This document shows, piece by piece, positions 856 through 22,400 of a stretch of 64,000 bases of DNA. This stretch comes from Deltaproteobacteria bacterium (lineage in GTDB: Bacteria; Myxococcota; JACRCW01). The first letter of the stretch is position 1. Every line of letters starts with the position of its first letter. The stretch is from NCBI GenBank assembly GCA_016218805.1, contig JACRCW010000017.1, forward strand, positions 53-64,052, in the 5' to 3' direction. Made by a program: the position numbers and the translations under genes. A model generated the notes under the pieces. That model saw nothing but the letters and a program-made list of their open reading frames with translations. It searched no databases and was not told the origin of the DNA.

Positions 856-2454
856 ATGGACACATCTACTACGACGACGACGACGACGGCGCCACCCGGA
901 CCCGACGCTGCGGGCCGCGTCCCGCGCGAATCACGCTCGCCAGCGGACGACCACGTGCACGCGGGCCCAGGAGGGCACCTCACCGATCTGGGCATTGCCG
1001 ACCGGCTTGTGCGTCGTCGTGGTGCGGACATGCGCCACTGCGCCGCGCGGGGGCAATGGCTCCTTTGGGACGGCCACCACTGGCAACCCGATCAACGCGG
1101 GTGCGCCATCCGCTTTGCCGCGGAAGAAGCGCGCGCCGCCACGACGGAGGCCGCCCGCTCTGGCGCTGACGCGAGGGTGCTCGCCGCCGCGAAGCGGCAG
1201 GAGGCGCACGGCCGCGTCTTGGGCGCGCTCGCCCTGGCCGCAGTGCACCCGCTGATCGCCGTGACCGCCGCGGATTTGGACGTGGACTCATGGCTGCTGA
1301 ACGTGCAAAACGGAACGCTGGACCTCCGCAGCGGCACCCTGCGGCCACACCGTCGTGACGACCTGCTCACGCACATGCTGCCCTTTGACTTCGACCCAGT
1401 GGCCCCGTGCGCGCGATGGGACCGCTTCCTCCACGAGGTCATGGACGGCCGGCAGGACTTGGTAGCCTTCCTCAGGCGCTGGTTTGGCTACTGCCTTACC
1501 GCGGACGTGCGCGAGCACGCGATGCTTTTCCTTGTCGGCGACGGGCGCAACGGGAAAGGCTGCCTCGTCGAAACGATCCAGCACGTGATGGGCCCGCGCT
1601 TGACGGGCGCCGCTCCCGAAGGCCTGTTGCTCCAGCAGCACGGCGCTCGCCACCCTGCTGACGTTCAGTTTCTCGCCGGCCGGCGCTTGATAGTCGCCAG
1701 CGAGGTTCCACAGGGTGCGGCGTTCAACGAGGAGCGAATCAAGAAGTTGACGGGGGGTGACACGTTGAACGCGCGTGGTATGCGGCAGGACTTCGCGGAC
1801 TTCACGCCCACGCACAAGATCGTCGTGCAGGCGAACCATCACCCGCGCGTGCGGGATCAATCGGCGGCGTTGTGGCGTCGCATGCGCGTGGTGCCCTTTG
1901 ACGTCTCGTTTGCTGGGCGCGAGGACCGCGGGCTGAAGGCCGCGTTGTGTGCGGAGGCGCCGGGGATCCTCGCGTGGCTGGTGGCAGGCTGCTTGGAATG
2001 GCAGAAGCACGGCCTGGGCGAGCCGCTGGCAGTGGCCCAGGCCACGGCCGGCTACCGGGCCGACGAGGACTTCCTTGGCCAGTGGTCGGCGGACTGGCAG
2101 TCGCGGTACCCGACGGCGGGGGAAACGAAAGCCGCGGACCTGCATGCCGACCTCCGGGCGTGGTGCGAACATCAAGGCGAGCACCCGCCGCGCCAGCGCG
2201 ACCTTGCCCGGGAACTCCACCGCCTGGGGTGGGTTCATCACCCAACGGCCCGGCCGGTCGCATGGAGCCCGCCGCAGTCTGCGCAGGCTGCGCAGTCTGA
2301 TTTGTATGACGCGGCTACACGCGCGCGTAAGGGCGTCAATGGGGAACAGACTGCGGCAGCCTGCGAGACTGCGGAAACCTGTCCGTCGGTGTCCGCTGGC
2401 GTCCAAACAGCCCCTCGCCCCTGGCCGGCCGATCCGGCGGAGGCCAAGGCATGA
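856..2454 (+). CDS. Phage/plasmid primase, P4 family, with C-terminal SF3 helicase/NTPase domain
   Basis: A Walker A motif (LFLVGDGRNGKG) is followed by a D5_N/primase-C-like region. At 532 aa it has the size and layout of P4 alpha-like primase-helicases. Confidence 0.8.
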   Translation: MDTSTTTTTTTAPPGPDAAGRVPRESRSPADDHVHAGPGGHLTDLGIADRLVRRRGADMRHCAARGQWLLWDGHHWQPDQRGCAIRFAAEEARAATTEAARSGADARVLAAAKRQEAHGRVLGALALAAVHPLIAVTAADLDVDSWLLNVQNGTLDLRSGTLRPHRRDDLLTHMLPFDFDPVAPCARWDRFLHEVMDGRQDLVAFLRRWFGYCLTADVREHAMLFLVGDGRNGKGCLVETIQHVMGPRLTGAAPEGLLLQQHGARHPADVQFLAGRRLIVASEVPQGAAFNEERIKKLTGGDTLNARGMRQDFADFTPTHKIVVQANHHPRVRDQSAALWRRMRVVPFDVSFAGREDRGLKAALCAEAPGILAWLVAGCLEWQKHGLGEPLAVAQATAGYRADEDFLGQWSADWQSRYPTAGETKAADLHADLRAWCEHQGEHPPRQRDLARELHRLGWVHHPTARPVAWSPPQSAQAAQSDLYDAATRARKGVNGEQTAAACETAETCPSVSAGVQTAPRPWPADPAEAKA

Positions 2455-2488: not shown

Positions 2489-3082
2489 ATGACCGCGGAG
2501 GGGGAAGCAACGCGCGCGTCCAGCGATACGGATCGCCCCGCACCCGGGGCAGAAGGTGGCACCATGACGACCACAAGGAGCCGGAAACGGCCGCAAATGG
2601 CAGGACGGCAGACCCGCGCGTTGTCCGCGCTGCTGAGCCACCACACGGTGGTTGCCGCGGCACGCGCCGCAGGTGTGGGTGAGCGGACGCTCCGCAGGTG
2701 GCTAGCGAGCGACGCCGCGTTCCAAGCAGAGTACCGCGCCGCGCTCCGGGACCTGGCGTCCCAGATCGCGCTGCGCCCCGTCGTCGCGTCTGAGACGGCG
2801 CTGGACGTGCTGACTGCGGTGATGGAAGACCCGGGCACACCTGCTTCGGTTCGCGTTGCCGCGGCAGGGAAGGTCATCGACGCTGCGCTGCGCATCATTG
2901 AGAAGGACGGAACGCTGAACGCGCACGCTGACGGGGCCGCGACGGTGCCCGCGATCACCGGTGAGTTGTCGCCGGGTGTTGAGCCGCCAAGCGAAGCGGA
3001 CGCCCACGGCACGGACACAGGTGCGGTGCACCAGCTGCCGTTGAATCCCCTGCGCCGTAGCCGGGCAGGTGGTGCCGAATGA
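2489..3082 (+). CDS. HTH protein with terminase-small-subunit-like N-terminal motif (paralog 1)
   Basis: The motif TVVAAARAAGVGERTLRRWLASDAAFQAEYRAA matches the TerS N-terminal HTH pattern (A.AGYS..TA......L.). Its stop overlaps the start of paralog 2. Confidence 0.5.
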   Translation: MTAEGEATRASSDTDRPAPGAEGGTMTTTRSRKRPQMAGRQTRALSALLSHHTVVAAARAAGVGERTLRRWLASDAAFQAEYRAALRDLASQIALRPVVASETALDVLTAVMEDPGTPASVRVAAAGKVIDAALRIIEKDGTLNAHADGAATVPAITGELSPGVEPPSEADAHGTDTGAVHQLPLNPLRRSRAGGAE

Positions 3083-3480
3083 AGCCCAATGATCCCTCCC
3101 CACAGCTGCCCCGCCGGCAGGAAGCCGCCCTGATGGCGTTGCTGGAGAGCCCCACGCTGAACGCGGCCGCAGCGAAGGCCGGGTGCAGCAAAGCGACGCT
3201 GCGCCGCGGGTTGGCCGAGGAGGCGTTCCTGGCGGCCTACCGAGCGGCTCGGCGGGAACTGATGGGGCACACCGCGGCACGCCTCCAAGCAAGCGCTGCC
3301 GAGGCGCTGGACGCATTGCGGGCCATCATCGCGGACGCGGATGCGCCAGCCGCCGCACGCGTCACCGCAGCGCGCACCGTGCTGGAGATGGCGACACGCA
3401 CCGCGGAAACGGAAGAACTGAGTGAGCGCGTGGCAAAGCTTGAAGCTGCCGCGCTAGCGACGGAGGAAACATGGGCATGA
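3079..3480 (+). CDS. HTH protein, terminase-small-subunit-like (paralog 2)
   Basis: The motif TLNAAAAKAGCSKATLRRGLAEEAFLAAYRAARRE is a paralog of the upstream gene. The two overlap by ATGA. Confidence 0.5.
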   Translation: MKPNDPSPQLPRRQEAALMALLESPTLNAAAAKAGCSKATLRRGLAEEAFLAAYRAARRELMGHTAARLQASAAEALDALRAIIADADAPAAARVTAARTVLEMATRTAETEELSERVAKLEAAALATEETWA

Positions 3481-3689
3481 AACAGAGGGTAGAAGCGCTT
3501 GAGCGCCGCGCACCGAAACCACAGGCGCGGATCCACTACGTCGTCCGGAAGGCCGACGATGACGACACGTGCCCACATTGCGAGCGCGAACAAGCCACCG
3601 GGGTGCCGCCTGGCAAGGTTGTGCACCTCACGTGCATCCGTCGCCGGGCCAGCGAAGTGCCGGCACGGCCGCCCGACGAGCAAGGGTGA
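3471..3689 (+). CDS. Small protein with a CxxC motif (possible zinc-binding)
   Basis: The ORF is 72 aa with a coiled N-terminus and a CPHCE...LTC motif. Its start overlaps the end of the upstream gene. Confidence 0.35.
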   Translation: MGMKQRVEALERRAPKPQARIHYVVRKADDDDTCPHCEREQATGVPPGKVVHLTCIRRRASEVPARPPDEQG

Positions 3690-4147
3690 TCGCTGCCGTT
3701 CGCGGCGGACAACTCGCAGTCACGGCAGCGGCGCGCACCCTGGATCAGCGCTCGACCTCGCGCTGTGGGCATGCGGCATCCTCGGCCGCTTCCTTGGCCG
3801 CCTTGCGGGCTGCCTCTCCATTCTTTCCGGCTGCCTCCTCCGCCTTGCGGGTTTGCTTTCTGCTCAACCTGCGCCTCGCACACCTCTCGATCGCGCCCCG
3901 TGTTCTCCCGTGTCCGCCATGCACTGACATACGTCCCGGCAGAGGATCTCCGGTTCCGGTGCTGTGGACGCGGATGCAGCAAGTCAGGACCGGGGCAGGC
4001 GAGTCACCGCGGCCGAAGTAGACAAAAAGCACCATAGGGCTACAGTGAATGCTGGGCCGCCGGGGATGGCCGCTCAAGCTACGGCCTAGGTCGCTATCCC
4101 TCAAGTTCCGTCACCAGCCCCATGGGACGGATGCAACGAAGGGTACG

Positions 4148-4762
4148 ATGGCCACCGCTGCCGATGCTTCTGCGTTCCTCTTGGAGATTCAGCTCCAGCT
4201 GGACACGTACAAGCTTCACAAGTTGCTGTACTATGCACAAGGTTGGCACCTCGCGTGGTACGGCGAGCCCCTCTTCTCTGACAGGCTCGAGGCATGGGTG
4301 AACGGCCCGGTTGCGCCCGGCGTCTTCCATGAAACGCGCGGACTCCGCGAGGTGCGTGCGGTGCCGAGTGGAGACGGATACGCGCTTACTGAATGGCAAC
4401 AGCGCACCCTCCGCGAAGTGATGCGCGTGTACGGGGCTTTCTCTGGCGCGGACTTGGCCGAGCTCACCCATCAGGAGCCGCCGTGGAAAGCCGCCCGGGC
4501 AGGCCTTCCGCCTGATGCGAGATCAGACGCGGAAGTCGAACGTGCCGCCATGAAGCAGTTTTTTGCAGGCCTAGCCGCCATTGGAGAGGAAAAGGGGCGC
4601 ATTCCGCAAGGCGTAGTGGTTGGACTGCTGGCCTGGGCGAACATGAAGACCACCGAGCGAATGGACTTGGCACACCAAGACTTCGTCGACGCCGACGCGG
4701 ACGCCTATGCAAGGTGGATGAACGACGGCGGTGATGAGCCGTGGCCCGAACCGCGCGCCTGA
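4148..4762 (+). CDS. Panacea-domain (DUF4065, SocA/PanA-like) antitoxin-type protein
   Basis: The motif KLHKLLYYAQGWHLAWYGEPLFSDRLEAWVNGPV matches the Panacea-domain signature. The start was chosen at the internal Met. Confidence 0.7.
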   Translation: MATAADASAFLLEIQLQLDTYKLHKLLYYAQGWHLAWYGEPLFSDRLEAWVNGPVAPGVFHETRGLREVRAVPSGDGYALTEWQQRTLREVMRVYGAFSGADLAELTHQEPPWKAARAGLPPDARSDAEVERAAMKQFFAGLAAIGEEKGRIPQGVVVGLLAWANMKTTERMDLAHQDFVDADADAYARWMNDGGDEPWPEPRA

Positions 4763-6092: not shown

Positions 6093-6415
6093 GCTGACCC
6101 CCGAGGTTGAACGCGGCCGGATGCTGCCGCGGTTCCGCGCTCCCGTCGACGTGCCGCACGTGCGACGCATGCTGACGCTGGCAAACGCTGCGCGCCGCGG
6201 CGGCAAACGTGTCGCGCCGTTCTCCGCCTCGGGGCTGAACGGCCATTCACCCGCTCGGGAAACGCGCTGCATGACGTATCCCATCCCCACGCATTGCCAG
6301 TCTGTCACGTCGTGCCCTGCCCCGGCTGTTACGGCGGGAACCCGCTGTAACGGATCTTGCCCGGGCGTGTCGCTTTGTGGTTGACGATGGGACGCAGCGT
6401 AATACACTGGGACGC

Positions 6416-7096
6416 ATGGAAACCCGCACCGTTGCCTACATCCGCGTGTCCACCGACAAGCAGGCCGACAAGGGCGTGAGCCTGGAGGCCCAGCGGGCGA
6501 AGGTGGAGGCCTACGCCACCCTCTACGATCTGGACATCGTGGACGTGGTGGTGGACGCGGGCGTTTCCGCCAAGACGCTGGACCGGCCGGGGCTCAACCG
6601 TGCGCTGGGGATGCTCAAGTCCGGCGCGGCTGACGCGCTGCTGGTGGTGAAGCTGGACCGCCTCACCCGCAGCGTCGTGGACCTTGGGACGCTGGTGGAC
6701 GCCTACTTCGCGGCGGGCAAGTGGGCGCTTCTGTCCGTGGGTGAGCAGATCGACACCCGCAGCGCCGCGGGCCGTCTCGTCCTCAACGTGCTGGCCAGCG
6801 TGAGTCAGTGGGAGCGCGAAGCCATCGGGGAGCGCACCAGCGCGGCGATGCAGCACAAGGCGTCACAGGGCGAGTACACCGGCGGTGGGGCGCCGTACGG
6901 CTTCCGCGTGGCGGCGGACGGCGTGCACTTGGACGAGGAACCCGCGGAGCAAGCGGTGCTTGATGAAGCACGCGCCCTGCGCGCCGCGGGGTTGTCCCTG
7001 CGCGCGGTGGCGGCGGAACTGGATCGGTTGGGCATGCGGTCTCGCGTGGGAAGCCCCTTCGCCGCTGTGCAGGTGGCGCGGATGGTGGCGGCATGA
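6416..7096 (+). CDS. Serine recombinase (resolvase/invertase family)
   Basis: The N-terminus VAYIRVSTDKQ carries the catalytic Ser motif, and there is a resolvase fold with a C-terminal HTH. Confidence 0.85.
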   Translation: METRTVAYIRVSTDKQADKGVSLEAQRAKVEAYATLYDLDIVDVVVDAGVSAKTLDRPGLNRALGMLKSGAADALLVVKLDRLTRSVVDLGTLVDAYFAAGKWALLSVGEQIDTRSAAGRLVLNVLASVSQWEREAIGERTSAAMQHKASQGEYTGGGAPYGFRVAADGVHLDEEPAEQAVLDEARALRAAGLSLRAVAAELDRLGMRSRVGSPFAAVQVARMVAA

Positions 7097-7440
7097 CGGC
7101 GCGGCCGGTGGACCTGGACGCGGTGCGCGCGTCGCGGAAGCGCCTGCGCGCCCTGGCGGCGGCGCACCCGCAGCTGCGCGGCGAGCCCGGCGCGAACAAC
7201 GTGAGCGGATGGGAAGCAACCCTGGCGACGGAGGAAGCACGAATGGCGACGCAACAGGTTGGGATCAGGCTGCCGGAGGAACTGGTGGCGCGGCTGGACC
7301 AGCACGTTGAGCGGATGCGCGCGGCGCAGCCAGGCCTTGAGGTGACCCGCGCGGATGCTGTGCGGGTGCTCCTGACCAAGGCGCTGGACGCGGAGGGCGG
7401 CAAGCCCGCGGCAAGGACCAAGAAGGGGACCCGCCCATGA
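7093..7440 (+). CDS. Ribbon-helix-helix (CopG/Arc-like) DNA-binding protein
   Basis: The motif VGIRLPEELVARLDQHVERMR...TRADAVRVLLTKAL is RHH-like. It shares ATGA overlaps with both flanking recombinase genes. Confidence 0.6.
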   Translation: MTARPVDLDAVRASRKRLRALAAAHPQLRGEPGANNVSGWEATLATEEARMATQQVGIRLPEELVARLDQHVERMRAAQPGLEVTRADAVRVLLTKALDAEGGKPAARTKKGTRP

Positions 7441-8570
7441 CCCGCGCGCGGCGTGGGCGCGGCGAAGGCGGCGTCTACCAGCGCCCGGACGGACTTTGGT
7501 CTGCGCAGCTGTCGCTTGGGTACGACGGGAACGGCGGTCGCCTCCGCCGCACGCTCTACGGGCAGTCCAAGCGGGACGTGCAAGCGAAACTGCGCGCCCT
7601 TCAGACGGACGCTGACGTGGGAACGCTTGTCGCCCCGGAGCGGCTCACCGTTTCGCAGTTTCTGTCGCGGTGGCTGGACTCGGCCAAGCAGACGATCCGG
7701 GCGACAACCGCTGCGCGGTACCGCGCCCTCATCCGCGTCAGCGTGGGCCCGCACATCGGCGGCATTCCTGTGCAGAAGCTCCAGCCGCTGCAGGTCCAGG
7801 CGCTCTACGCCAAGCTGGAAGCTGCGGGGCTCGCGCCCTCAACACGTCGTCAGGTGCACGCCATTCTGCACCGTGCGTTTGCCCAGGCGGTCCGGTGGGG
7901 GAACATGGTCCGCAATCCCTGTGACGCCGTGGACAAGCCACGCGTGCCCAAGCACCGGGTTGACGCACTGAAGCCAGAGGAGGTGGCGAAGCTCGCGGAG
8001 GCTGCCAGCGGGGACCGCCTCGCGGCGCTGTACGTGCTCGCCCTCTCAACGGGGATGCGGCAGGGCGAACTGCTGGGCTTGCAGTGGTCGGACGTGGATC
8101 TCCCTGGGCGCGCCGTTGTCGTGCGGCACTCGCTGGAGGAAATCGCGGGCAAGCTGCGCCTGTCCGAAACCAAGTCCGGGAAGGTGCGTCGCGTTGACCT
8201 GGACGCGCACACCGTGGATGCGCTGCGGGAGCACCGGAAGCGCATGCTGGCGGAGGGTCACCCGGGGCCCTGGGTCTTCCCGGACACGGAGGGGAACCCG
8301 CTGCGCAAGTCCAACCTCGTCCGCCGGTCCTTCAAGCCGCTGCTGAAGCGCGCCGGGCTGCCGGACATCCGCTTCCACGACCTGCGCCACGCGGCTGCCA
8401 CGCTGATGCTCCTGCAGGGCGTCAACCCGAAGGTGGTCCAGGAGCGCCTTGGGCATGCGCAGCTAACCATCACGCTGGACGTCTATGGTCACGTCCTGCC
8501 CACCATGCAGGCCGACGCGGTGGCGAAGATGGACGCCTTTTGGCGGAGCGCGGCAGTTACTACTGCCTAA
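7437..8570 (+). CDS. Tyrosine integrase (phage integrase family)
   Basis: The protein has an N-terminal SAM-like domain and a C-terminal catalytic domain with R...HDLRHAAATLML...Y. It reads towards the tRNA fragment. Confidence 0.9.
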   Translation: MTRARRGRGEGGVYQRPDGLWSAQLSLGYDGNGGRLRRTLYGQSKRDVQAKLRALQTDADVGTLVAPERLTVSQFLSRWLDSAKQTIRATTAARYRALIRVSVGPHIGGIPVQKLQPLQVQALYAKLEAAGLAPSTRRQVHAILHRAFAQAVRWGNMVRNPCDAVDKPRVPKHRVDALKPEEVAKLAEAASGDRLAALYVLALSTGMRQGELLGLQWSDVDLPGRAVVVRHSLEEIAGKLRLSETKSGKVRRVDLDAHTVDALREHRKRMLAEGHPGPWVFPDTEGNPLRKSNLVRRSFKPLLKRAGLPDIRFHDLRHAAATLMLLQGVNPKVVQERLGHAQLTITLDVYGHVLPTMQADAVAKMDAFWRSAAVTTA

Positions 8571-8693
8571 CTACTGCCAATGGGGCGGAAAGTGGCGAAC
8601 CGCGGCGGTTGGTGGCGGATGCGTGGCCCGTCCGGTTGACGTCGTCAGCGAACGCGTGCGGCCGTCCGCGGCAGAAAGCGGAAACCCGCCCGT

Positions 8694-8740
8694 TCGGACT
8701 CATAATCCCTAGGTCGGCGGTTCGATTCCGCCCCCCGCTA
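8694..8740 (+). other. Partial tRNA 3' fragment (anticodon loop CTCATAA with CAT, T-arm GGCGG-TTCGATT-CCGCC, acceptor 3' strand). Candidate att core of the island.
   Basis: The T-arm is canonical, but no matching 5' acceptor or D-arm could be found, so this is not a complete tRNA. Integrating elements produce exactly this kind of partial 3' copy. Confidence 0.45.
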
Positions 8741-9085
8741 CACAGGAATCCATCGCATCCAGGTTCAATGCAGTCGCCGCGCCGGGGCCAGCCCGGGGCG
8801 GTGACCTTTCATCCGCACGCGGGTTGGGTTGCCCGCGGTTCTCACGGCGGGCGGAACCCAACGCCGCGCTTCATTCACCATGAAATCCCGGTGGCGGCTT
8901 CTCATGCCTTCTGCTAGTTTCACCCCATTCGCCGCGGGCTCGTGGGCAGACCGCTCCAGCGTGGCGACGGAAAGGGGACCGATCATGCGTGCCGCCGCCA
9001 TCACGTACGCCGTGACCGCCCCGTCCGTTCGCTCCTGAGCGTCGACGGAAACCTGCAAGGAAAGCCGTAGAGCGGGCGCCACAGA

Positions 9086-9520
9086 GTGGTGCCCCGCGGA
9101 GTGTTTCCAACAATGGGTTCCCACCAGAAACGGCCGGAGCGTCCGCTCCCGGCTGACGCCGTCCATGATGACGACGGCGTCGATCCCCGTGTGTATTTCT
9201 CGCGTGAATCACACCGCCGGAGTGTCCGGCGGGACGGGCAGGTGTGCGCCACTGCCTTTCGCGTGCTTTCCCTGGTGCTGGACGGTGAGGTCCAGGACCC
9301 CGTCCTGGGAGATTGCGCTGTTGACGAAGTCACGGTGGACGGCGGAGGAAAGCTGCGCGTGCGCATCCGGGTGCCAGATGCGGCCCGCGTGGCAGAGGCC
9401 CGGGAGCGGCTGCGTCGCCTGGAGGGGTGGCTGCGGTCCGCTGTGGCCGCGGCGCTGGTCCGCAAACGGGCCCCGGTGCTGGCGTTTGACGTGGTGCCCC
9501 AAAGCGGGGTGGCGCCATGA
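9086..9520 (+). CDS. Hypothetical protein upstream of and overlapping rtcB
   Basis: Codon bias is good from about 9240 onwards. The stop overlaps the rtcB start. No motif was recognised, and the protein does not look like archease. Confidence 0.4.
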   Translation: MVPRGVFPTMGSHQKRPERPLPADAVHDDDGVDPRVYFSRESHRRSVRRDGQVCATAFRVLSLVLDGEVQDPVLGDCAVDEVTVDGGGKLRVRIRVPDAARVAEARERLRRLEGWLRSAVAAALVRKRAPVLAFDVVPQSGVAP

Positions 9521-10638
9521 GCGCGGAGCAGCATGTCTGGGCATGCGCTCCCTTGCCGGACGACGTGCAGCGCGCGCTGGAACTCATCCGCAACACGGAG
9601 GGCGTGTGCCACGTGGCGGTCATGCCGGACGTCCACCGTGCCGAAGACGTCTGCGTGGGAACCGTGGTGGGCACCGCCGACGTGGTCATTCCCGCCGCCG
9701 TCGGAGCGGACATCGGTTGCGGGATGGCGGCGATCCGGTTTGACGTGGATGCCGGATGCATCCGCGACGAACGCACCGCCGCGCGCGTTCTTGCGTTGCT
9801 CAACGCGCGGGTCCCCGGTCTGCACCACGCATCACGCTCCCGCCCCGTCCTCCCGCCTGAGGTGCTGGCAGCGGAGCTGAGCCACGCGTCGCTCCGCAAG
9901 CAGGCGCAAAGAGACGGGGTGCTGGAGTTCGGCACGCTGGGGCGCGGCAACCACTTCCTGGAGTTGCAGGCTGACGACGATGGCCTGCTGTGGCTGATGG
10001 TGCACAGCGGATCCCGCGCCATGGGACCGGAGATCCTCCGTCACCATCTGGCGGCGAGCCGGATGACCACCACCGGGCTGCGCGTCATCAACGCCGGCGC
10101 AGCGGAACCTTATCTGCAGGACGTCCGGTGGGCGCTGGCGTACGCGCATCACAGCCGGGCGTACATGCTCCAGGTGGTCACGGACATCCTGGGTTCCCTC
10201 GTCGGGGCCGCGGCAGACCCGGCCACGCTGATCACCTGCGAGCACAACCATGTGCGACAAGAGGAGCACCGGGGCCGGTTGCTGTGGGTGCATCGCAAGG
10301 GCGCCATGTTCGCGGGAGCCGGGGTGGCTGGCGTCATCCCCGGCTCCATGGGGTCCTCAAGCTTCCACGTCCAGGGACGCGGGTGTGAGGACGCGTTGTG
10401 CTCAAGCTCCCACGGCGCGGGCCGGGCCATGAGCCGCAGCCAGGCACGGCGGGCCGTCACCCTCCGCGCGCTGGAGGACCAGCTGCGGGGCGTGCACTTT
10501 GACCACCGTCTGGCCCTGCGCCTGCGGGATGAAGCGCCCGCCGCCTACAAGGACATCTCCGCCGTCATGCGCGCGCAACGCGAGTTGGTGCGCGTGGTCC
10601 GGAGGCTGCGACCGCTGCTCAGCTACAAGGCCGCCTAG
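9517..10638 (+). CDS. rtcB: RNA 3'-phosphate/5'-OH ligase RtcB
   Basis: The RtcB metal-binding blocks HVAVMPDVH, GNHF, CEHNH and HGAGR are all present. Confidence 0.85.
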   Translation: MSAEQHVWACAPLPDDVQRALELIRNTEGVCHVAVMPDVHRAEDVCVGTVVGTADVVIPAAVGADIGCGMAAIRFDVDAGCIRDERTAARVLALLNARVPGLHHASRSRPVLPPEVLAAELSHASLRKQAQRDGVLEFGTLGRGNHFLELQADDDGLLWLMVHSGSRAMGPEILRHHLAASRMTTTGLRVINAGAAEPYLQDVRWALAYAHHSRAYMLQVVTDILGSLVGAAADPATLITCEHNHVRQEEHRGRLLWVHRKGAMFAGAGVAGVIPGSMGSSSFHVQGRGCEDALCSSSHGAGRAMSRSQARRAVTLRALEDQLRGVHFDHRLALRLRDEAPAAYKDISAVMRAQRELVRVVRRLRPLLSYKAA

Positions 10639-10687
10639 CCAGCTTGGGGACGTGGTGACCCCCATCACGCGCCGCCGCAGGAAACGC

Positions 10688-10827
10688 GTCCGGATAGGGG
10701 GGACGGGCCTTCCGGATAGGGGGGAAGGCCATTCCGGATAGGGTTTGGGCCTTCCGGATAGGGGGGGAAGTGCTTCCGGATAGGGGGGGGACACGTTCCG
10801 GATAGGGGGGCCGCACCCTCCGGATGC
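10688..10827. repeat. Tandem direct-repeat array: 6-7 copies of TCCGGATAGGGGGG(G) at about 21-bp spacing
   Basis: The copies begin at 10689, 10711, 10732, 10752, 10774 and 10795, with a partial copy at 10820. The array lies between convergent gene ends (rtcB and the HEAT-like gene). Confidence 0.85.
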
Positions 10828-10885
10828 ATCCAGGCGCCAACCCGCGTGACCCGCATCACCCCACGCGCTCGGGCCCGCAGCGGCG

Positions 10886-12331
10886 TCACGGTCCCGCTTG
10901 CTGGGGCCAACTGCTGCGCGCGTCGGACCACCAGGCGCGCCACAACCGGGCCACGTCCCGGCGCTCGGCGCGGGTGGCTTTGGCGTCAAACACCATGGGC
11001 TGACCGGTCAACTGGTGCAGGTCACGCACCGCGGTGCGAGCCAAGTTGCCGTCCGTGCCATCCAGCGCGGCAATGAGCCAGTCAATCCGGGTGAGCGCGC
11101 CGGAGCGTGCGTACCAGCGCTGCCAGGCCCGCGCCGCCCGTCCGGCATCCTGGCAAGTGATCTTGGTCAAGGCGTCATGCGCCTCATCCCCCAGCGGGCC
11201 GGACAGCAGGCCAATGAGCGGTTTCACCCACGCGGCCTCGTGGATCAGTGCCGCGGCGCGCACGGCGGCAAGCTGCAACCGCTCATCGCCTGACGCGGCA
11301 CCTTGGGCCAGCGCGGCAATCACGCTGCGCGCGGCGGCCGCCTGTTCAGGCCCGCGCGCGGTCATCTGCCCCAACATGTTCGCGGCCGCGTAGGCAATGC
11401 GCGGCTCGTCGTCGGCAAGGAACTGCGCGCACAGGACGGCCACGGCAGGCAGACGGGTCTGGTCAGCCATCAGCACCGCCACGAACCTGGCGGAGCGGTC
11501 CGCGTGCCCCACCCCCGCGGCCACCGCCAGCACGGCGGCGTCTTCGCCCAGGCGGCCCAGCGCGTGGGCCACGGCGCTCAACTCCGCCACGGTCCGGCGC
11601 GGGGCGTCATCCACAAACACATCCCGCAGCAACCGGCCCGGGAAGCGGCGCAACAGTTCGGCGGCGGCGCAGCCGCGGTGCGCCAGCAACCGGCTGGCCA
11701 GCGCTTCCGGGTCCGCGTTCCCCGCGGCAAGGCGTTCCACCAGCGGACCCAGTTCCGGGTCCACCGGCGTGGCCACCAGGCGGGCGACGCACGCGCGCAA
11801 TTCGTCCGCGTCCAGGTGCGGAGCCTGCTCCAGCAGCGCGTCCAACTCGGCCGGCGCAGTGCGCGGCCCTGCGGGCACCGCGTCAGGCTGGTCCCATGCG
11901 GGCGGTGGCGGCGGTGGTGGTGGCGGCGGTGGTGGTGACAGCGGTGGTGGTGACAGCGGTGGCGGTGACGGCGGCGGCGGCGGCGGTGATGGCGGCGGTG
12001 GCGGCGGCGTGGCGGGGGACCGGGGAGGCGGCCCGAGTGCTGCGGGAGGCGGGCCGTCCAGCATGGCGCGTACCTGCTGCGTGAACTCCGCCGGCGCGTT
12101 GGAGATGAGGACCATGGCCACGCCTTCCCGGACGGACAGGACCTTGCCCTGCACCTCCGCCTGGGGAGCTTCCGCAGACAACGCAAACCGCAGCTTGAGA
12201 AACCCCCGGGCGGCCGGCGACCCGCGCACGGGGATGGGCCCGGCGTCGATTCTGCTCATGAACGCAGCCAGCGCCTCGCGGTTGGGAAACCGCACGACAC
12301 CCTGCTCATCCATCTGCGGGAGGTCATCCAT
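10886..12331 (-). CDS. Proline-rich linker protein with a C-terminal HEAT/ARM-like alpha-helical repeat domain
   Basis: A long poly-Pro tract (PPPPPPSPPPPPPSPPPLSPPP...) is followed by helical repeats. The start was chosen at MDDLPQM; the longer ORF reaches 12487. Confidence 0.55.
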   Translation of the reverse strand: MDDLPQMDEQGVVRFPNREALAAFMSRIDAGPIPVRGSPAARGFLKLRFALSAEAPQAEVQGKVLSVREGVAMVLISNAPAEFTQQVRAMLDGPPPAALGPPPRSPATPPPPPPSPPPPPPSPPPLSPPPLSPPPPPPPPPPPPAWDQPDAVPAGPRTAPAELDALLEQAPHLDADELRACVARLVATPVDPELGPLVERLAAGNADPEALASRLLAHRGCAAAELLRRFPGRLLRDVFVDDAPRRTVAELSAVAHALGRLGEDAAVLAVAAGVGHADRSARFVAVLMADQTRLPAVAVLCAQFLADDEPRIAYAAANMLGQMTARGPEQAAAARSVIAALAQGAASGDERLQLAAVRAAALIHEAAWVKPLIGLLSGPLGDEAHDALTKITCQDAGRAARAWQRWYARSGALTRIDWLIAALDGTDGNLARTAVRDLHQLTGQPMVFDAKATRAERRDVARLWRAWWSDARSSWPQQAGP

Positions 12332-12625
12332 GGTTTCCGCCGTCGGTGTTTCTGCACACAGTACGTTGGGGCGCGGAATCCTGCCTGCCCTCCGGCGTTT
12401 CAGCAACGGGGCGCGTGGGTCCACGTCGTCCGGTGCGGGAAGGCGGCCGCGCCACCTTCTGTGCGAGCTGATACGCGCGGCCTGCACAGGCCATCCGTCC
12501 GTGAAGACGTCAAATCGCTGCGGGCATGGCTACAAAGTGGTTGAGACCCATTCGGCCGAGGCTCCGGGCGCCACGGCCGCCTGCACGGTCCAGCGGGTCG
12601 CAGCCATGGGCGGGGAGGTGCGCAC

Positions 12626-12745
12626 CACGCCAAGGCAGGAAGTGTCTCATTATTCGAGACACCGCTTCAGGCCTACACCCCAATCCCCGGCGTTGACCCG
12701 GCCACACGCGCCGGGGCCAACCCATGCCCGGAGGCGCCGGCCAGG
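12626..12745 (+). repeat. Copy C of a ~120-bp repeated intergenic element containing a 21-bp palindrome, GTGTCTCATTATTCGAGACAC
   Basis: The palindrome is at 12642-12662. Its flanks resemble the two copies at 32178-32482. Confidence 0.55.
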
Positions 12746-13046
12746 CGCGGAGTAGGAGGACGGGCAAATGGGCACGTCCATGAGCGGCTGAGCCGGGTGC
12801 CAGCACACGGCCCTGGCGCAGGCGTGCCTGACCCCGGGGATGCGTGTGATGCGCCACGCCGCGTCCTCAACCAGCGCCTGGACGCTGACCCGCAGATGGA
12901 TGGCACCTTCACGCGCAGGCTGCTGCAGGCCCACAAGCTGAACCACGGCATGGTGGGCAAATGGGTGTTGCACGACATCCAATGTTTGGCGCGCGCCGTG
13001 CGGGAGCGGACGCAAGCACAAGGAGTGTTGTGGCGCCCGGCCCGCG

Positions 13047-16534: not shown

Positions 16535-16992
16535 GCGTCGGCACCACGCGTCAGGGCGCGCCATCCACGCGGATGGCAGCTGTCACCTCGGAGTCCGGTG
16601 GCGCCCCCGCCGGGGCCAGCGTAGTCAATCCACCCGCGGAACATGACGGTGGGGCGCTCCGCCATCAGCGGCGCGGTACCGTCATCCTCGATTTCAACGT
16701 GGACGCTCGTCCGGCACTCCTGTCCGAGGGCGCACCCCTCAAAGATGTTCCAACGGTGTTCCATGATGACGTGCCCCGACGACATTTCGCAGCCGACAGC
16801 GTTCTGCGAACACGCAAACGTGCGCAGCCCGCCGTCAACCGCGACGGCCTGCAATGGCACCACCTGTCCGCCGACCTGGCCCAGCCCCACAGCCGTGACT
16901 GTTCCAGAGAACGAGCAGCGACCTGTTTCTGGCCACAGCAGTTCGATGATGAGTCCAACTTCGATGCGCTCGGCAACGCCGGTCGTATGCAT
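16531..16992 (-). CDS. Hypothetical protein (locally lower GC). It may be the frameshifted body of a small lipoprotein whose MKKLRL signal lies in another frame at about 17089.
   Basis: The ORF has moderate codon bias. An adjacent out-of-frame ORF encodes MKKLRLWLGV... (a signal-like sequence). Confidence 0.25.
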   Translation of the reverse strand: MHTTGVAERIEVGLIIELLWPETGRCSFSGTVTAVGLGQVGGQVVPLQAVAVDGGLRTFACSQNAVGCEMSSGHVIMEHRWNIFEGCALGQECRTSVHVEIEDDGTAPLMAERPTVMFRGWIDYAGPGGGATGLRGDSCHPRGWRALTRGADA

Positions 16993-17085
16993 TCGTCAGC
17001 CCGCAGGCGAATCCCGCTCCAACGGAAACACTCAGCCAATGCTCACCACCAGGCATTGGGACGCCCAGCCACAACCTGAGTTTCT

Positions 17086-17862
17086 TCATGGCGGTCCGCC
17101 GTCCGCACCTTCGCACCTGTAGACGTTGGACTGGCCCTGGACGGTGAGTCCGGCGTCCGTCACTTGAGGGTACACCGAATACGGCAAACGGTTCGGAACC
17201 CGGGTGCGTGACGCTGCTGCTTCCTCCTTGGCCTTCTCCAACCTAAGAGCCCAACGGCGGCAACAACGGTCCCCGAGCAAGTCCACTTGCAAGTCCCTCC
17301 CCGCTGCCGACCCACCTTCCATGTATGCCCATGCGTTGGGCCAGATCACCTGGAAATCGGCGAGATACTTCCCGGTGTCGTCTACGACCAACAAGCCTCC
17401 GTTCGCCGACGCGTTTCCCATGACGGACTGGAACGCGACGGGGAGCCCCACGGAAACTCCACACACAGGGTCGCTCGCACGAGCCTCGAAGCGCAGGGCG
17501 AATACCACACGGGGTTGCTCCCCCCTGGTGAACTCCATGATCGACGCCCAAGTTTGGGCGGGCGCAATGAGGATCTTGGATGCCAGGGCACCCATCCATA
17601 GGTCCTCCGGCTGCACTTCCAACATCTCTCCAGTGCCATTCCAATACGGCATTCCATCTTCGCGCCACGACGCTGGACAACTCTCGGCTTCAGGGCACGC
17701 ACCCACAAAGGCCAGACGACCAACGCCCACCGCGTTGGCCCGATCAAGATCCTCAGCGTCATGAAACACGGTTGAGTCCGGAGGCCGTATCGTCTCCGTG
17801 CAACTCAGCGCGGCGCAGAGGCACGCGGCTACCACGGGTTGTCGGCGGAGAATCCAACGCAT
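17086..17862 (-). CDS. Hypothetical secreted/lipoprotein
   Basis: The signal and lipobox MRWILRRQPVVAACLCAALSC are present. The start was chosen downstream of the repeat array, which the longer ORF reads through. Confidence 0.5.
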   Translation of the reverse strand: MRWILRRQPVVAACLCAALSCTETIRPPDSTVFHDAEDLDRANAVGVGRLAFVGACPEAESCPASWREDGMPYWNGTGEMLEVQPEDLWMGALASKILIAPAQTWASIMEFTRGEQPRVVFALRFEARASDPVCGVSVGLPVAFQSVMGNASANGGLLVVDDTGKYLADFQVIWPNAWAYMEGGSAAGRDLQVDLLGDRCCRRWALRLEKAKEEAAASRTRVPNRLPYSVYPQVTDAGLTVQGQSNVYRCEGADGGPP

Positions 17863-17974
17863 TTGAAACGCCCTCCCGCCCTTTCTGCGGCGAGCATGAT
17901 GACGAGGAATTGCCTCTGTCAACAGCCTGCGGTGCAAGTAGGAGCCGTTTGAACCCGTCGAACGCCACCCCATC

Positions 17975-18192
17975 AGGCGTCCAGCGGTACCGGAGCAGGC
18001 GTCCGATTGTACCGAAGCAGGCGTCCACCGCTGCCGGAGCGGGCGTCCGGCGGTACCCAAGCAGGCGTCCAGCGGTACCCGAGCAGGCGTCCAGCGAACC
18101 CGAGCAGGCGTCCAGCGGAACCCGAGCAGGCGTCCAGCAGTGCCGGACCGGGCGTACGCTGTTGCCCGAGCAGGCGTCCACCTCCGGAGCCA
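17975..18192. repeat. Tandem array of about 10 copies of a 21-22-bp unit, CAGGCGTCCAGCGGTACCCGAG
   Basis: Copies start at about 17975, 17997, 18018, 18040, 18062, 18084, 18105, 18127, 18149 and 18171. The array sits in a divergent intergenic region. Confidence 0.85.
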
Positions 18193-18301
18193 CGCTCCAA
18201 CCGCCCCGGGTTTGCGGCTCCCCGCGGTGGCCCCACCCAATGAACGCCCGTGACCAAATCCTGTTCCCCTCAGCGGCCTCCTGGACCAGGGCCGCTATCA
18301 C

Positions 18302-18946
18302 GTGACGCTGACGACTGAGAAGGCCGACCAGCTTGCGAAGTTTGGGTTCACGCCGGACCACCGTGCGCGCATGGAGGAGATCCTGAAGAAGATCGGCACC
18401 GACCGCGCGGAGGCGACTGACAAGCGTGCCCGGTCACAAAGCAACACCAAGACGGAGCGCGAAGCCCTGTCCGATGTGAAGGCCCTGAAGCGAAAGCTCC
18501 TCAGCGCCGCCGACGACCTCGCGACCGACGCAGTGATGAACGAGGACGACCGCAAGGCGCTCAATGCGGGCCGCAAGCTTGCGCGGTCCACCACGCTGCA
18601 CTCCGCGTATCTCACCAAGGTCCGCGGCGTGGTGGAGCGCCATTCCGCCGCGCTCAAGCCGCTCATGGGCGGCGAGCGGGATCCCCTGACGTGGCTGGAT
18701 GATGTGAAGAAGGCGCTTGATTCGGCCCAGAGCACGCAGGAGTTGTCGGTGGCCTCGCTGCCCACGGAGACCGCCGAGGTCTACGAGAGCAAGGGCGAGT
18801 TGCTCACGCTCATTGAGAAGGCGAACCGTGCTGGGTGTCGCGCGTATGACGGCGATGCGCGCACCATTGGGTTGTTCAACAAGGACCTCATCCTCCGCGC
18901 GGTGGCCAACCGCGCGGTAGCGGCCCCCAAGCCCCTCCCTGCCTGA
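18302..18946 (+). CDS. Hypothetical protein
   Basis: The ORF has good codon bias and is predicted to be helical. No motif was recognised. Confidence 0.5.
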   Translation: MTLTTEKADQLAKFGFTPDHRARMEEILKKIGTDRAEATDKRARSQSNTKTEREALSDVKALKRKLLSAADDLATDAVMNEDDRKALNAGRKLARSTTLHSAYLTKVRGVVERHSAALKPLMGGERDPLTWLDDVKKALDSAQSTQELSVASLPTETAEVYESKGELLTLIEKANRAGCRAYDGDARTIGLFNKDLILRAVANRAVAAPKPLPA

Positions 18947-19449
18947 GCCGACGGAAGGTCACCCTTTGACTCGAGTTTCGCCGTTTTTCAGGCTGGGCGG
19001 GCGTTCCGGGCCGGCTTGCGGCAGTCCGCAGGGACAGATTTGCTCATGTTTGTGGGGCCGGGGTCTCTGCCGGCCGCCGACCCATGGCTGCACAGCGCAA
19101 CAGCCCGCCACCAACCGGGGTGGTTTCCCGCGGTATTGAGTGCCCAGGCGCTGTACCGCAGTTGAGGGTGGTGTGGGGTCGGGGCGCCGCGCTGGCATGC
19201 GCCTGCGGCCGGCAGGGATGCCGGCCCCACAAACACCTGACTGGGCACCGGGCATGAGTGCTGGGCTCAGACTCGGGTCTTACCGGCGTGATGTTCATCT
19301 CTGTCGTCGTTGACGTTGGTTGGGAGTGGGCTGCTATGGACGGTTGGGTGCCCCGTGTGGCGCGGCTCAGAAACTCCGCAACACCGCGAGGAACCGCGCC
19401 AAAGCCCCTCCCAAAACGGCGAAACGCGAGTTTGACGCCGGCGCTGCGC

Positions 19450-22400
19450 TCAGGTGCCGCCGTCCGCCGGGCAGGTGCCACCGTCCGCGCGCTGGCAGAA
19501 GCGCGCCCGCACCTGGAGGGTCTCCACGGCCACCGCCCCGCCGTCCGCGTCCACCGCCCGCACCTGCACGGCCACCGCGGGAGCGCCGCCCGGCAGGCGG
19601 ACCGTGTGCCGTGCGGGTTGGGGCACCGTGCCAGACGCCAGCGGCTGCCAACTGCCCGCGGCGGGTCCCACGGACTGCCACGCGTGGAGGCTGCCGGCAG
19701 GCACCCCCGCGTCCGAGGACTGGTCAACGTCCACCGCGACTTCGCGCAGGTGGGCGGTGGACAGGTGGGCCTCCGACAGGGGGGCCCCCAACGTCAGGCT
19801 CCCCGCCGGGTGGCGGGGGCTTTCCAGGATCCACGTGCCTTCCGAGTTGCCGCTGGGACCTGACGCGGACAGCGCCAACACGCCGCCGGCCACGGGGTCA
19901 TAGGCCGCGCCTACCACGCCCTCCAGCGCCAGGGGCCGCGGCGCCAGCGGCAGGGCGCGGAAGTGCAACGCGGCGCCGTCCCAGGTGACCTCCAGGGACG
20001 GCACCGCCGTTCCGCCGCGCGGGTCCATCGCGGACGTGCTGTCACCGCCCACCACCACCAGCGCCTGCCGCACCGGGTCATACGCCAGGGTGTGATTGGC
20101 ACGCGCCGGCGGGGCGTCCACCACGGGAGTGGCGTTCACCCAGCGGTGCGTGCCCGGGTCCAACAGCCACGCGTCCGCCAGCGGGCCGGTGTCGCCCAGG
20201 CCGCCGTACAGCACCACGGCGCGGGCCTCCGCAAAGTACGCCATGGCGGCGGCGCGTCGCGGTGGCGGCCGTGTGGGCGAATCACCCGACACGTCACTCC
20301 ACAGCGCCAGCGCAGCGTTGCGGTTGAAAGTGAGCGTGGTGTCCAGGAGTGTGCCGCTGCCGTTGGCGCCGCCAAACAGGAAGGTGGTGGACGGAAAGCC
20401 GGTGGCGTCCACCAGGGCCAGCGCACCGTCCGCGCGTCCCGGGTTGGGCCCCAGCAGGCAGGCGCCCGCCACATTCAGCCCGTTGGCGTCCAGCGTGGCG
20501 TACCCGCACAGCATCAACGTGCTGGTGGGTCCCACCAGCACGGCTTCCACGCTGTCAGTCTCCGGCGGCACGGCCCCCATGGTCAGGCCCAACGGGTAGT
20601 TGTTGAGCAGGTTCAACATGGAGGACGACGTGGTCCACGCGCCGGCGCTGCCGCGCCAGAGCTGCACGGCGCCGCTGGAGTCCTGCACCACGGCAACGGG
20701 CGCGGACCTCCCCATGACCATCAACACGCGGCCGCCTGCGGGCGCGCGCAGCGGCGCGGGGGTCACCTCCGCCCAGCCGGGTGCCTCGCTCCAGGCCCAC
20801 AGGGTGCGGCGCGTGCAGGTTTCACCCGGGAGGGCCTCACAGCCGGCCAGCAGCAGCCGCCCCACCAGTGCGCCGTCCGCGCGCCAGCCGCGGTGCGGGT
20901 CCAGGAACCCGGCCGCCGCGGGCTGTGGTCCCGGCGTCACGGACGTGGCCACGGTGGACCAGGTGCCCGCCCGCAGCCGGGAGAGCGTGTCCGCCGTGGC
21001 GCTGCCGCCGTAGAGCAGCAGGTCCCCGTTGGACGGGTCCACCACCATCAGGTGCCCGCTGCGGGCCGGGGCCGCGCCCGCCGTCCCCACCGCCGCGAAA
21101 CTGACGCCGTCAAAACGCCACAGGTCGGCCAGCGGCGTGCCGGCCGCGGAGGTCCCGCCGTGGACCAGCACCGTGCCGGTGGCCGGCTCCCAGGCGCCGG
21201 CCGCCCCACGCCGCGCGGACAGGGTGGCCCCCGGCACGGCGCGCCACGCGTACCCGTTCCACTCCCACGTGCTGGTGCTGAAGGTGGCCGGCGGTTGGGC
21301 GCAATCCCGCACGCCGCCCACCAGCACCACGGCGCCCCGGCCGGGGTCCGCCACCAGGGTCGCCTGGGCGCGGCCTTCGGGCGCGGCTTCCAGGGCAAAG
21401 GCCGCACCGTCCCAGCGCCACACGTACGGCAGCGCGTCATTCCCCCCGCCGCAGCCGCCATAGAACATCACGCCACCACCCACCGGGTCGTACGCGGCCG
21501 CCACGCCGCGCAGGCCGACGGGGAGGTCACCGCGCAGCTCGGGGAAGCGCCAGCTGGAACCGTCATACTCCGCCACCTGGGCGCTGCTGCCCGCCCACGC
21601 CAGCAGCACCAGCCGGTCACGTGCGGGGTCATACGCGCCGGCCATGTCCGCGGACGCCAGCGGTGTCCCGTCCGGCACTTCCACCACACGCCACTGCGTG
21701 CCACCGGACATCACCAGCGCCCCGTCCGCCGCGCCCGCCAGCCGCGGGTGCCCCGCCCCGGGCGTCACGCCCCAGGACCCGCCCGTGTCCACGGGCAGCG
21801 GGTGCGGCGGCCAGGCCCCGCTCTGCCAGACCACCGGCGCGGCACCCCGCGTCGGGACCACGGTCTCCACGTCCAGCTCGGTGTGCTGCAGGGGCACCGG
21901 CGTGGACTCGTTGCCGGCCTCATCCACGGCGGTGACCAGCACGCCGCGCCCTTCCATGCCGGTCCACACGGGGCTGCTGGACTGCCAGGCCCCCGCCCGG
22001 TCCTCCCACCCCACCTGCGACAGCAACCGCGGGGCGGAACCCAGCGGGCCCGCGTCGGCTTCGGCGGTCACCGGCCAGTCCCAGAAGCGCAGCAGGCGCA
22101 CGTGCGCCCCCGCCGGGAACCCAAAGTCCTGCGGCCCCAGGTCCACCCGGGCGGCGCCCAGCCCGGTGCTGCCCACCACGCTGAACACCGCGCTGCCGGT
22201 GACCTCGCTGTAGCGCTCCCCGGGGACCGTCACCGGCCCTCCACCCGGCTCCGGACCGCCGCCGCCTGTGGGGCCCAGGCCGCCCGTGGTGGTGCCGGCG
22301 TCCGCGTCAGCGGGCAGCCCGGGCAGGGTGACCGCGCTGACTGGCGTGTAGTGCTTGGCGGTGGGCTGCCGCAGCAGCGCCACGTTGTGCTGCCGCACCT

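Follow-up and report, generated by a model that had tools for sequence, protein, structure and literature searches.

Contiguous direct repeats of about 22 bp are familiar as the iterons of theta-plasmid origins: R6K gamma carries seven units of 22 bp, pPS10 four units of 22 bp, and RK2 17-mers at a period of 22–23 bp. Direct-repeat operators with a 21-bp period are known for the LytTR and AraC/XylS regulators. More generally, bipartite binders that occupy 20–22 bp per protomer include iteron Rep monomers, AraC/XylS proteins and MuA/TnsB. BldC binds its direct-repeat operators, made of 9-bp units, cooperatively and head to tail (PMC5859096). At gene ends in enterobacteria, arrays of repetitive extragenic palindromes and bacterial interspersed mosaic elements (REP/BIME) are reported in a preprint as partly Rho-dependent terminators and mRNA stabilizers (bioRxiv 10.64898/2026.03.23.713779). 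Here we describe a tandem array of direct repeats at positions 10689–10825 of a 64,000-nt stretch (the window; about 70% GC) from a metagenome-assembled genome (MAG) of a deltaproteobacterium (GCA_016218805.1, contig JACRCW010000017.1, positions 53 to 64,052), lying between the converging 3′ ends of rtcB and a gene for a HEAT-repeat protein. Our preferred but tentative reading, to which we give a probability of roughly 35%, is that one DNA-binding protein, recognizing a specific sequence, would dock at the six to seven phased copies of the array.

The locus resembles several described systems in part. It shares with theta-plasmid iterons its six to seven contiguous head-to-tail copies, 22-bp period, conserved core and adjacent inverted repeat; unlike them, it is chromosomal, has 67–71% GC, and lies outside the mobile island of the window, between convergent host genes, with no initiator gene, DnaA box or AT-rich element. 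Like enterobacterial REP/BIME arrays it is extragenic, made of short repeats, and placed at 3′ ends between convergent genes; those elements, however, are imperfect palindromes with stable hairpins, occurring in hundreds of copies per genome and in alternating orientation, whereas ours are direct repeats that fold no better than shuffled sequence and form a single locus in the 64-kb window. The direct-repeat operators of BldC, LytTR and AraC/XylS regulators, which vary in unit number and are covered by protein filaments on one DNA face, have in common with the array direct repeats, a conserved element of 9–14 bp and a non-conserved spacer, but they sit in promoters, usually as two to four sites, and the array has neither a promoter nor an adjacent regulator gene of such kind. 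By the defining tests of each class, it is not an iteron origin, a REP/BIME, a canonical G-quadruplex (G4), an intrinsic terminator, a type III toxin–antitoxin (TA) locus, a transposon end or a set of integrase arm sites, and it appears from its sequence to be an orphan among the known bacterial intergenic direct-repeat arrays of iteron-like layout.

Anatomy of the array and apparent constraint on its core

The array consists of six full head-to-tail units and a truncated seventh (Table 1), bearing out an earlier note on this DNA that had described a G-run tandem array of 6–7 copies at 10688–10827. Each unit has an invariant 11-nt core, TCCGGATAGGG, followed by a G-run and then by a variable spacer of 6–8 nt. 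The period, which the note had put at about 21 bp, is 22 bp, with start-to-start spacings of 22, 22, 20, 22, 22 and 22 bp (five of the six intervals exactly 22). The further claims that the repeats are direct and phased at about two helical turns are supported. G-run lengths in units 1–6 are 6, 6, 3+3, 7, 8 and 6, the run of unit 3 being interrupted by TTT to read GGGTTTGGG, and the exact 14-mer TCCGGATAGGGGGG is present in five units. A longer G-run (7 or 8) goes with a shorter spacer, and the 22-bp register is kept. Tandem Repeats Finder (TRF) returned both a period of 22 (5.6 copies, score 126) and a period of 42 (score 148, 80% matches). The only self-complementary part of the unit is the hexamer TCCGGA. 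At its right end the array merges, through the truncated copy, with a perfect 10-bp palindrome, GGATGCATCC; a 12-mer containing this palindrome, CCGGATGCATCC, occurs twice, 1.07 kb apart, inside rtcB (9752–9763) and at the array end (10820–10831), with no homology between the two places beyond the 12-mer. The possibility of an artifact of one assembler is removed by an independent Logan assembly (run SRR12113407), which has the first 3.5 units in identical sequence before it breaks inside the array.

Table 1. Coordinates of features discussed in the text (positions are those of the window unless another locus is named)
Feature	Coordinates	Strand	Details
Array unit 1	10689–10710	+	Core and G-run TCCGGATAGGGGGG; spacer ACGGGCCT
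Array unit 2	10711–10732	+	Core and G-run TCCGGATAGGGGGG; spacer AAGGCCAT
Array unit 3	10733–10752	+	20 nt; core TCCGGATAGGG; spacer TTTGGGCCT
Array unit 4	10753–10774	+	Core and G-run TCCGGATAGGGGGGG; spacer AAGTGCT
Array unit 5	10775–10796	+	Core and G-run TCCGGATAGGGGGGGG; spacer ACACGT
Array unit 6	10797–10818	+	Core and G-run TCCGGATAGGGGGG; spacer CCGCACCC
Array unit 7, truncated	10819–10825		TCCGGAT only, without G-run or spacer
Perfect palindrome GGATGCATCC	10822–10831		10 bp; truncated seventh copy runs into it, sharing the GGAT of the core
Bracketing direct repeat, left	10655–10675	+	GTGACCCCCATCACGCGCCGC; imperfect, 21 nt
Bracketing direct repeat, right	10846–10866	+	GTGACCCGCATCACCCCACGC; 81% identity to left copy, 191 bp apart
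rtcB, RNA 3′-phosphate ligase	9517–10638	+	Pfam RtcB E = 6e–76; stop 50 nt upstream of array
HEAT-repeat gene	10886–12487	–	533 codons; stop 60 nt from array right end
HTH_17 excisionase-like gene	533–763		Island
P4-type primase	856–2454		Island; D5_N domain
Two HTH proteins	2489–3480		Island
SocA/Panacea antitoxin-like protein	4049–4762		Island
Serine recombinase	6377–7096		Island
RHH protein	7093–7440		Island
Tyrosine integrase	7437–8570		Island
TCCGGATAGGG(G) pair, Microbispora	L004 3726–3757 and L008 1200–1231		Between divergent genes, upstream of ECF-type sigma-like gene
TCCGGATAGGG(G) pair, Polyangiaceae MAG	L007 2111–2142		Just upstream of Fe-S oxidoreductase; rubrerythrin/DUF3501/LysR cluster
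TCCGGATAGGG(G) pair, alphaproteobacterial MAG	L009 3833–3865		Between divergent genes

Conservation is sharply partitioned within the unit. Over the 11 core positions of the six units there were no mismatches (0 of 66), against 12 of 36 in the last six spacer positions (Fisher P = 9e–7); 6/6 units share the identical core 11-mer, and 7/7 have TCCGGAT. The G-run is not as well preserved as the core, being broken in unit 3 and otherwise 6–8 long. Spacers of units 1 and 3 (GGGCCT) are alike, as are those of units 2 and 4 (AAGGCCAT, AAGTGCT), and since TRF also scores the period of 42 higher, these resemblances suggest that the array grew by duplication of two-unit blocks and then diverged. Since neither neutral drift nor concerted evolution would leave only the core untouched, we infer that TCCGGATAGGG has been under selection for being recognized in a sequence-specific manner. 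The earlier note had held that a 14-mer absent elsewhere, with an invariant copy number and no termination or structure signal, would mark an incidental repeat; by the absence of the 14-mer elsewhere and of a structure signal the array would be one, but the contrast between core and spacer argues that it is more.

That contrast also bears on a near-neutral minisatellite (variable-number tandem repeat, VNTR), whereby a 22-bp unit would have expanded by replication slippage in the convergent gap, a place where insertions damage no promoter, and been merely tolerated there, an explanation that we consider unlikely, though the likeliest of the alternatives. Like bacterial VNTRs (MIRU-type repeats, for example), the array is intergenic, has a unit of tens of bp, and shows signs of block duplication (to which the TRF preference for a two-unit, 42-bp period points) and homopolymer length variation, its G-runs differing as slippage-prone homopolymers do. 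It is moreover found at one locus only, none of the collections searched having a relative of it, and gives no structure or terminator signal, and another convergent gap of the window (18946–19450) also contains a repetitive element, one that resembles miniature inverted-repeat transposable elements (MITEs). VNTR units, however, diverge evenly along their length, whereas the array has 11 invariant positions and is strongly diverged in the rest; such a partition of mismatches is unexpected if neutral divergence or concerted evolution, which treat all unit positions alike, shaped the array. The minisatellite explanation also leaves the terminal palindrome, with its share of the core, unexplained.

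Proposed phased docking sites for a DNA-binding protein

The proposed protein would recognize TCCGGATAGGG(G), each 22-bp unit being occupied by a single protomer, arranged head to tail on roughly one helix face. With the centers of TCCGG and the G-run about 9 bp apart, the conserved part of the unit covers two major grooves in succession, matching by analogy the footprint of the bipartite binders of 20–22 bp noted above. The terminal palindrome could serve as a dimer-binding nucleation or capping site, and the truncated copy with its palindrome resembles the pairing of direct and inverted repeats in iteron and operator systems. Tandem duplication, probably of two-unit blocks, would have produced the array, with selection keeping the core as the spacers drifted. 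Once occupied, it would form a protein roadblock or boundary limiting read-through from both sides or, alternatively, a titration sink for the binder; the roadblock or boundary is the most plausible effect because the array, which has no promoter, sits at the junction of two convergent transcription units. The binding protein as the source of the constraint, its stoichiometry, and the roadblock or sink effect are all things that we infer. Docking sites would account for more features of the locus than the alternatives do: the invariant core of 11–14 bp, the drifting spacers, the strict two-turn register, the half-site in the palindrome, and the absence of RNA-structure, coding and replicon signals.

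Several observations weigh against docking sites. No candidate for the binder emerged: of the neighboring genes scanned against Pfam, out to about 5 kb in both directions, only those of the island encode a recognizable DNA-binding domain, and the island genes that have such domains belong to an element with its own, different repeats. The 64 kb contain no other TCCGGATAGGG site. Regulator sites do not typically lie between two 3′ ends, and to our knowledge natural protein-roadblock arrays at bacterial gene ends are not an established class. The core-versus-spacer contrast rests on six units in one genome, and the collections contain no close relative.

A bolder version of the same idea, which we regard as a long shot, is that phased chromosomal high-affinity sites outside promoters load a head-to-tail filament, acting as a bidirectional roadblock or insulator between convergent genes or as a dedicated sink for a regulator. 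Such a filament roadblock would correspond, in bacteria, to the repeated Reb1/TTF-I terminator boxes found in eukaryotic rDNA.

Searches for related arrays

The array had no counterpart elsewhere in the window or in the collections searched. A search for the 14-mer across the 64 kb, as the earlier note had proposed, found none outside the array even when two mismatches were allowed, and the 11-mer core at up to one mismatch was found only as the six array copies; among 100 dinucleotide shuffles of the window (up to 2 mismatches), 0/100 reached at least five matches (mean 0.46). We scanned 185,579 GTDB species-representative genomes (596 Gb) for the exact two-copy pattern and obtained nine loci, five of them coding repeats and the others isolated two-copy sites in promoter regions. 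The JGI metagenome scan gave two loci, one a duplicate of a coding match and the other an unrelated repeat-rich contig; IMG/VR gave no match for the two-copy pair and 19 single, mostly coding, matches for a 15-mer. Over the public collections, most two-copy loci were Pro/Tyr-rich coding repeats or isolated two-copy sites, and no comparable array was found in the species genomes, JGI metagenomes, IMG/VR, PLSDB or phage records. In blastn searches the array had no match in PLSDB or INPHARED, and with the 2-kb region the only match was rtcB. Neither the window nor loci L004, L007 and L009 had an Rfam match, whether at the gathering score or with E relaxed to 1, and literature searches on the motif and on myxobacterial repeats returned nothing specific. 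The gene content of the source MAG looks myxobacterial, and the databases hold no close relatives of the lineage: its best RtcB match is 60% identical and the homologs of its HEAT protein about 31%. Looking up the HEAT protein with two alternative starts returned no record.

The isolated two-copy sites (Table 1) are direct repeats of TCCGGATAGGG(G) at a spacing of 20–22 bp, and L004 and L007 share the spacer bases CAGGG as well as a GGGGTT that follows the second copy. They may represent an operator motif or chance. We regard them as a lead rather than homologs, because a handful would be expected by chance, on a rough estimate, among short tandem duplications in 596 Gb. An OxyR/LysR-type operator was suggested by the gene context of L007; no CTAT dyad lies between the ATAG elements, and the idea stays an unproven lead. 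A repeat-rich metagenome contig (L012, Ga0114938_1011093) is apparently non-coding at 3500–3970, where dense G/C-rich tandem and palindromic repeats of 12–14 bp include TCCGGATAGGGG-type units of period 12, followed by a low-GC segment.

Setting between convergent genes

Facing stops at 10636–10638 (+) for rtcB and 10886–10888 (–) for the HEAT gene confirm that the array lies between convergent genes, roughly central in a gap of 247 bp, and the companion claim that it is not in a promoter agrees with the finding of 0 sigma-70-like sites. The plus strand of the array is non-coding, a TAG in every unit closing all three frames, and the minus-strand open reading frames (ORFs) that cross it lack the coding signal in third-position GC content (GC3). 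The HEAT gene has a GC3 of 0.82 and encodes a poly-Pro linker and C-terminal HEAT-like repeats; its only detectable homologs are HEAT/MshEN proteins. A GGC/GGT-rich repeat of 15-bp period within it (11901–12015) encodes, on the minus strand, the long poly-proline/serine linker, a low-complexity segment that swamped the word-based homolog search for this protein.

On the other side, NCBIfam RtcB families match the window RtcB below their cut-offs, the nearest being of the 'release_rtcB' type. An RbfA-like gene (9086–9520, +) overlaps the rtcB start by 4 nt, and the overlapping pair recurs on two unrelated contigs (L013 2609–4119 and L014 2390–3972) whose RtcB homologs are 57–60% identical. Because the pair is conserved with such distant homologs, we take it as host-type DNA, and the pairing suggests, by analogy with PrfH–RtcB, a dedicated module for repair of 30S/16S rRNA. 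The array is not an rtcB-associated element: the regions downstream of three rtcB homologs differ, the first having a plain hairpin, the second a REP-like array of 83-bp units that is unrelated, and the third a convergent gene, and none has such an array. The apparently REP-like array, from another lineage (L014 4104–4414, JGI contig Ga0498930_0024032), lies about 130 nt downstream of the rtcB homolog and has 3.7 copies of an 83-bp unit, each carrying the hairpin CCCTCCCCCGGAGTACCGGGGGAGGG. Mimicry of the 16S rRNA 3′ end, prompted by the presence of RbfA and RtcB, was also rejected, the local alignment being no better than those of 156 of 500 shuffles. We regard rtcB as context only and claim no functional link between it and the array.

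G-quadruplex, folding and termination

The six G-runs on one strand (G6–G8, with that of unit 3 broken) recall the G-tract repeats of G4 elements, and G4 formation had been suggested for them. In its favor, the 137-nt G4Hunter mean over the array, 1.0, is the maximum of the 64-kb window. Yet a regular-expression scan found no canonical motif in the array (four tracts of G3+, loops of 1–7), and the sole relaxed match (10741–10790) needs loops of up to 15 nt. Peaks of G4Hunter over 25 nt are ordinary, at 1.6–1.72 in a window where 71 regions reach or exceed 1.5, and the gain from G4-aware RNAfold is –1.5 kcal/mol, below the shuffle mean of –2.1. Unlike G4 repeats, moreover, the tracts are 14–16 nt apart, folding prefers Watson–Crick pairing, and in one unit the core has survived the loss of the G-run. 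Overall, a G4 is weakly supported.

The idea of a terminator-like element found support in one respect only. No hairpin with a U-tract was found between 10600 and 10900 (the only match in 9000–13000 is at 9065–9084), and RNA folding of the array is unremarkable, with z-scores against dinucleotide shuffles of +0.93 for the plus strand and –0.76 for the minus strand. The sole termination-related signal is the C-rich 3′ flank of the HEAT gene on the minus strand, which has the top C-over-G 78-nt window among 43 gene flanks, (C–G)/78 = 0.359, within the top 0.5% of all windows; the 3′ flank of rtcB is the most G-rich of the 43. In a compositional test for rut sites (at least 70 nt, C-rich, G-poor, weakly structured, downstream of a stop), only the minus-strand transcript qualified, a composition that fits a putative Rho-loading site for that transcript.

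These flanks are among the arguments for a directional element acting at the RNA level in the 3′ untranslated regions. From the HEAT side, Rho would load onto an unstructured RNA with C-runs every 22 nt and terminate transcription; from the rtcB side, a G-rich RNA or non-template strand would, through G-tract structures, pause or terminate polymerase or protect the 3′ end. Alternatively, the repeat would be a binding motif for an RNA-binding protein. We judge this decidedly unlikely. The array does lie in the 3′ flank of both genes, the extremes of C-over-G and of G-richness fall on the appropriate sides, the minus-strand RNA is as weakly folded as Rho loading requires, and no other 137-nt window scores as high with G4Hunter. 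The preprint cited above also reports E. coli REP arrays between convergent genes as partly Rho-dependent terminators and mRNA stabilizers (bioRxiv 10.64898/2026.03.23.713779). But neither C-richness, which is all that Rho loading needs, nor G-tracts, which are all that a G4 needs, explain why TCCGGATA is invariant when the G-run itself may break (unit 3), the absence of a canonical G4 motif and the poor gain from G4-aware folding speak against the G-tract part, and there was neither an Rfam match nor anything similar downstream of the rtcB homologs.

Iteron-like layout and the neighboring mobile island

An integrated mobile island occupies the window from position 1 to about 8742, its left end lying beyond the window (Table 1). 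Directly after the integrase stop is a 45-nt 3′ fragment of a tRNA-Met(CAT) gene (8696–8742) comprising anticodon loop, variable loop, T-arm and 3′ acceptor strand, and ARAGORN found no complete tRNA in the window; the right end of the island would be marked by this fragment, as a displaced att fragment. Two copies of an 11-bp direct repeat, T(A/T)ACTACTGCC, at 8557–8578 overlap the integrase stop and are probably the arm-type site of the island integrase. The array lies 2 kb outside the island, beyond the RbfA-like/rtcB pair. It was rejected as a set of arm-type sites for the tyrosine integrase, which would be expected inside the element and within about 150 bp of the att core, on account of that distance from the att-like tRNA fragment and of the different repeat that adjoins the integrase stop.

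A further rival is an iteron-type origin or partition site of an integrated replicon, or the remnant of one, at which an initiator or centromere-binding protein would bind as monomers on the repeats and as a dimer on the inverted repeat. The geometry does match the iteron named in the earlier note. Iteron origins have three or more direct repeats of 17–22 bp at a period of about 22 bp, and a contiguous run of six to seven direct repeats of 22 bp that share a conserved core, next to a palindrome that reuses part of the repeat, is the classical layout; an element encoding a P4-type primase/helicase, recombinases and an RHH protein is 2 kb away. The surroundings do not match. The island ends at the tRNA-Met fragment with 11-bp repeats of its own, and the host-type RbfA-like/rtcB pair intervenes. 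Among the flanking ORFs scanned there is no rep, par or winged-helix initiator gene; there is no DnaA box within 700 bp, the nearest DnaA-box-like 9-mer (1 mismatch) being at 11607, inside a gene; the maximum AT fraction of any 40-nt window in 10000–11500 is 0.45, so that no AT-rich stretch is available; no plasmid, phage or viral contig matches; and no gene starts beside the palindrome, although initiator genes usually have an inverted-repeat operator in their promoter. An iteron is thereby largely refuted by context, and we hold it very improbable.

Least probable of all, in our estimate, is a small non-autonomous MITE-like insertion with an internal minisatellite, bounded by the imperfect 21-nt direct repeats that bracket the array and by weak terminal inverted repeats. 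Weakly complementary segments do occur at both ends and form a long-range stem in the fold, and MITEs that contain minisatellites are on record (PMC4596501). Such an insertion would, however, be present in one copy in 64 kb and in none of the public collections, its target duplication of 14–21 bp would be unusual for transposons, and its inverted repeats are only 72–83% complementary and GC-rich, possibly by chance.

Other candidates were rejected as well. Repeat units of type III TA systems are 34–45 nt in the known families; the units here are 22 nt. A ToxI-like repeat would also lie directly upstream of a co-oriented endoribonuclease toxin gene, and no gene follows the array on either strand. 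A Tn7/Mu transposon end was rejected on finding no minus-strand copies of the core in 64 kb and no DDE transposase among the annotated ORFs, and CRISPR on architecture. For an FtsK-orienting (KOPS-like) array or replication terminus, there is no dif-like site in the window, and GGGNAGGG-type words lack clear polarity; the array is near a local maximum of cumulative GC skew (12110), which coincides with the switch in gene orientation. A cluster of DnaA boxes was rejected in that the reverse complement of the core matches TTATCCACA at 6/9 positions only, with no true boxes nearby.

A second 22-bp array and other features of the window

A second tandem array with a 22-bp period, of unrelated sequence (consensus GTACCcGAGCAGGCGTCCAgCG), lies 7 kb from the first, at 17965–18183, about 120 nt upstream of an ORF with no Pfam or NCBIfam match (18302–18946). 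In its GGCGTCC-centered core, GGCGT is invariant in all 10 units, and a flanking C of GGCGTCC is changed in one. It had no match in viral contigs. The genome thus has more than one phased array of this kind, as would be expected if protein-binding arrays formed a class or, equally, if the lineage tended to form minisatellites of 22 bp; were the filament roadblock correct, it would hint at a lineage-specific family of such elements. Around it, a segment of about 1.6 kb (16600–18250) has lower GC (62–64% versus 70%) and no ORF with the GC3 coding signature of the genome, and may be decayed, acquired or non-coding.

The MITE-like element of the 18946–19450 gap is palindromic, with 19-nt terminal inverted repeats (18969–18987 and 19413–19431, 95% complementary) and an internal 70-nt inverted repeat (19047–19116 and 19166–19235). 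Farther along, a 299-aa tyrosine recombinase of the XerC/XerD type (29102–30001, –; Phage_integrase and Phage_int_SAM_1) has housekeeping neighbors, namely, amidase, RecN, DnaE, Pgi, LpxD and DapF.

Significance

As it stands, the array is an orphan known from one locus, in a deltaproteobacterial and probably myxobacterial MAG that is uncultured and poorly sampled. In practical terms it offers binding and termination assays a well-defined sequence to test, rather than a change of current views. If the core is a docking site, the array would be a natural multi-site binding array at gene ends instead of in a promoter. It would then give a handle on how GC-rich bacteria without classical terminators stop convergent transcription or buffer the levels of a regulator.

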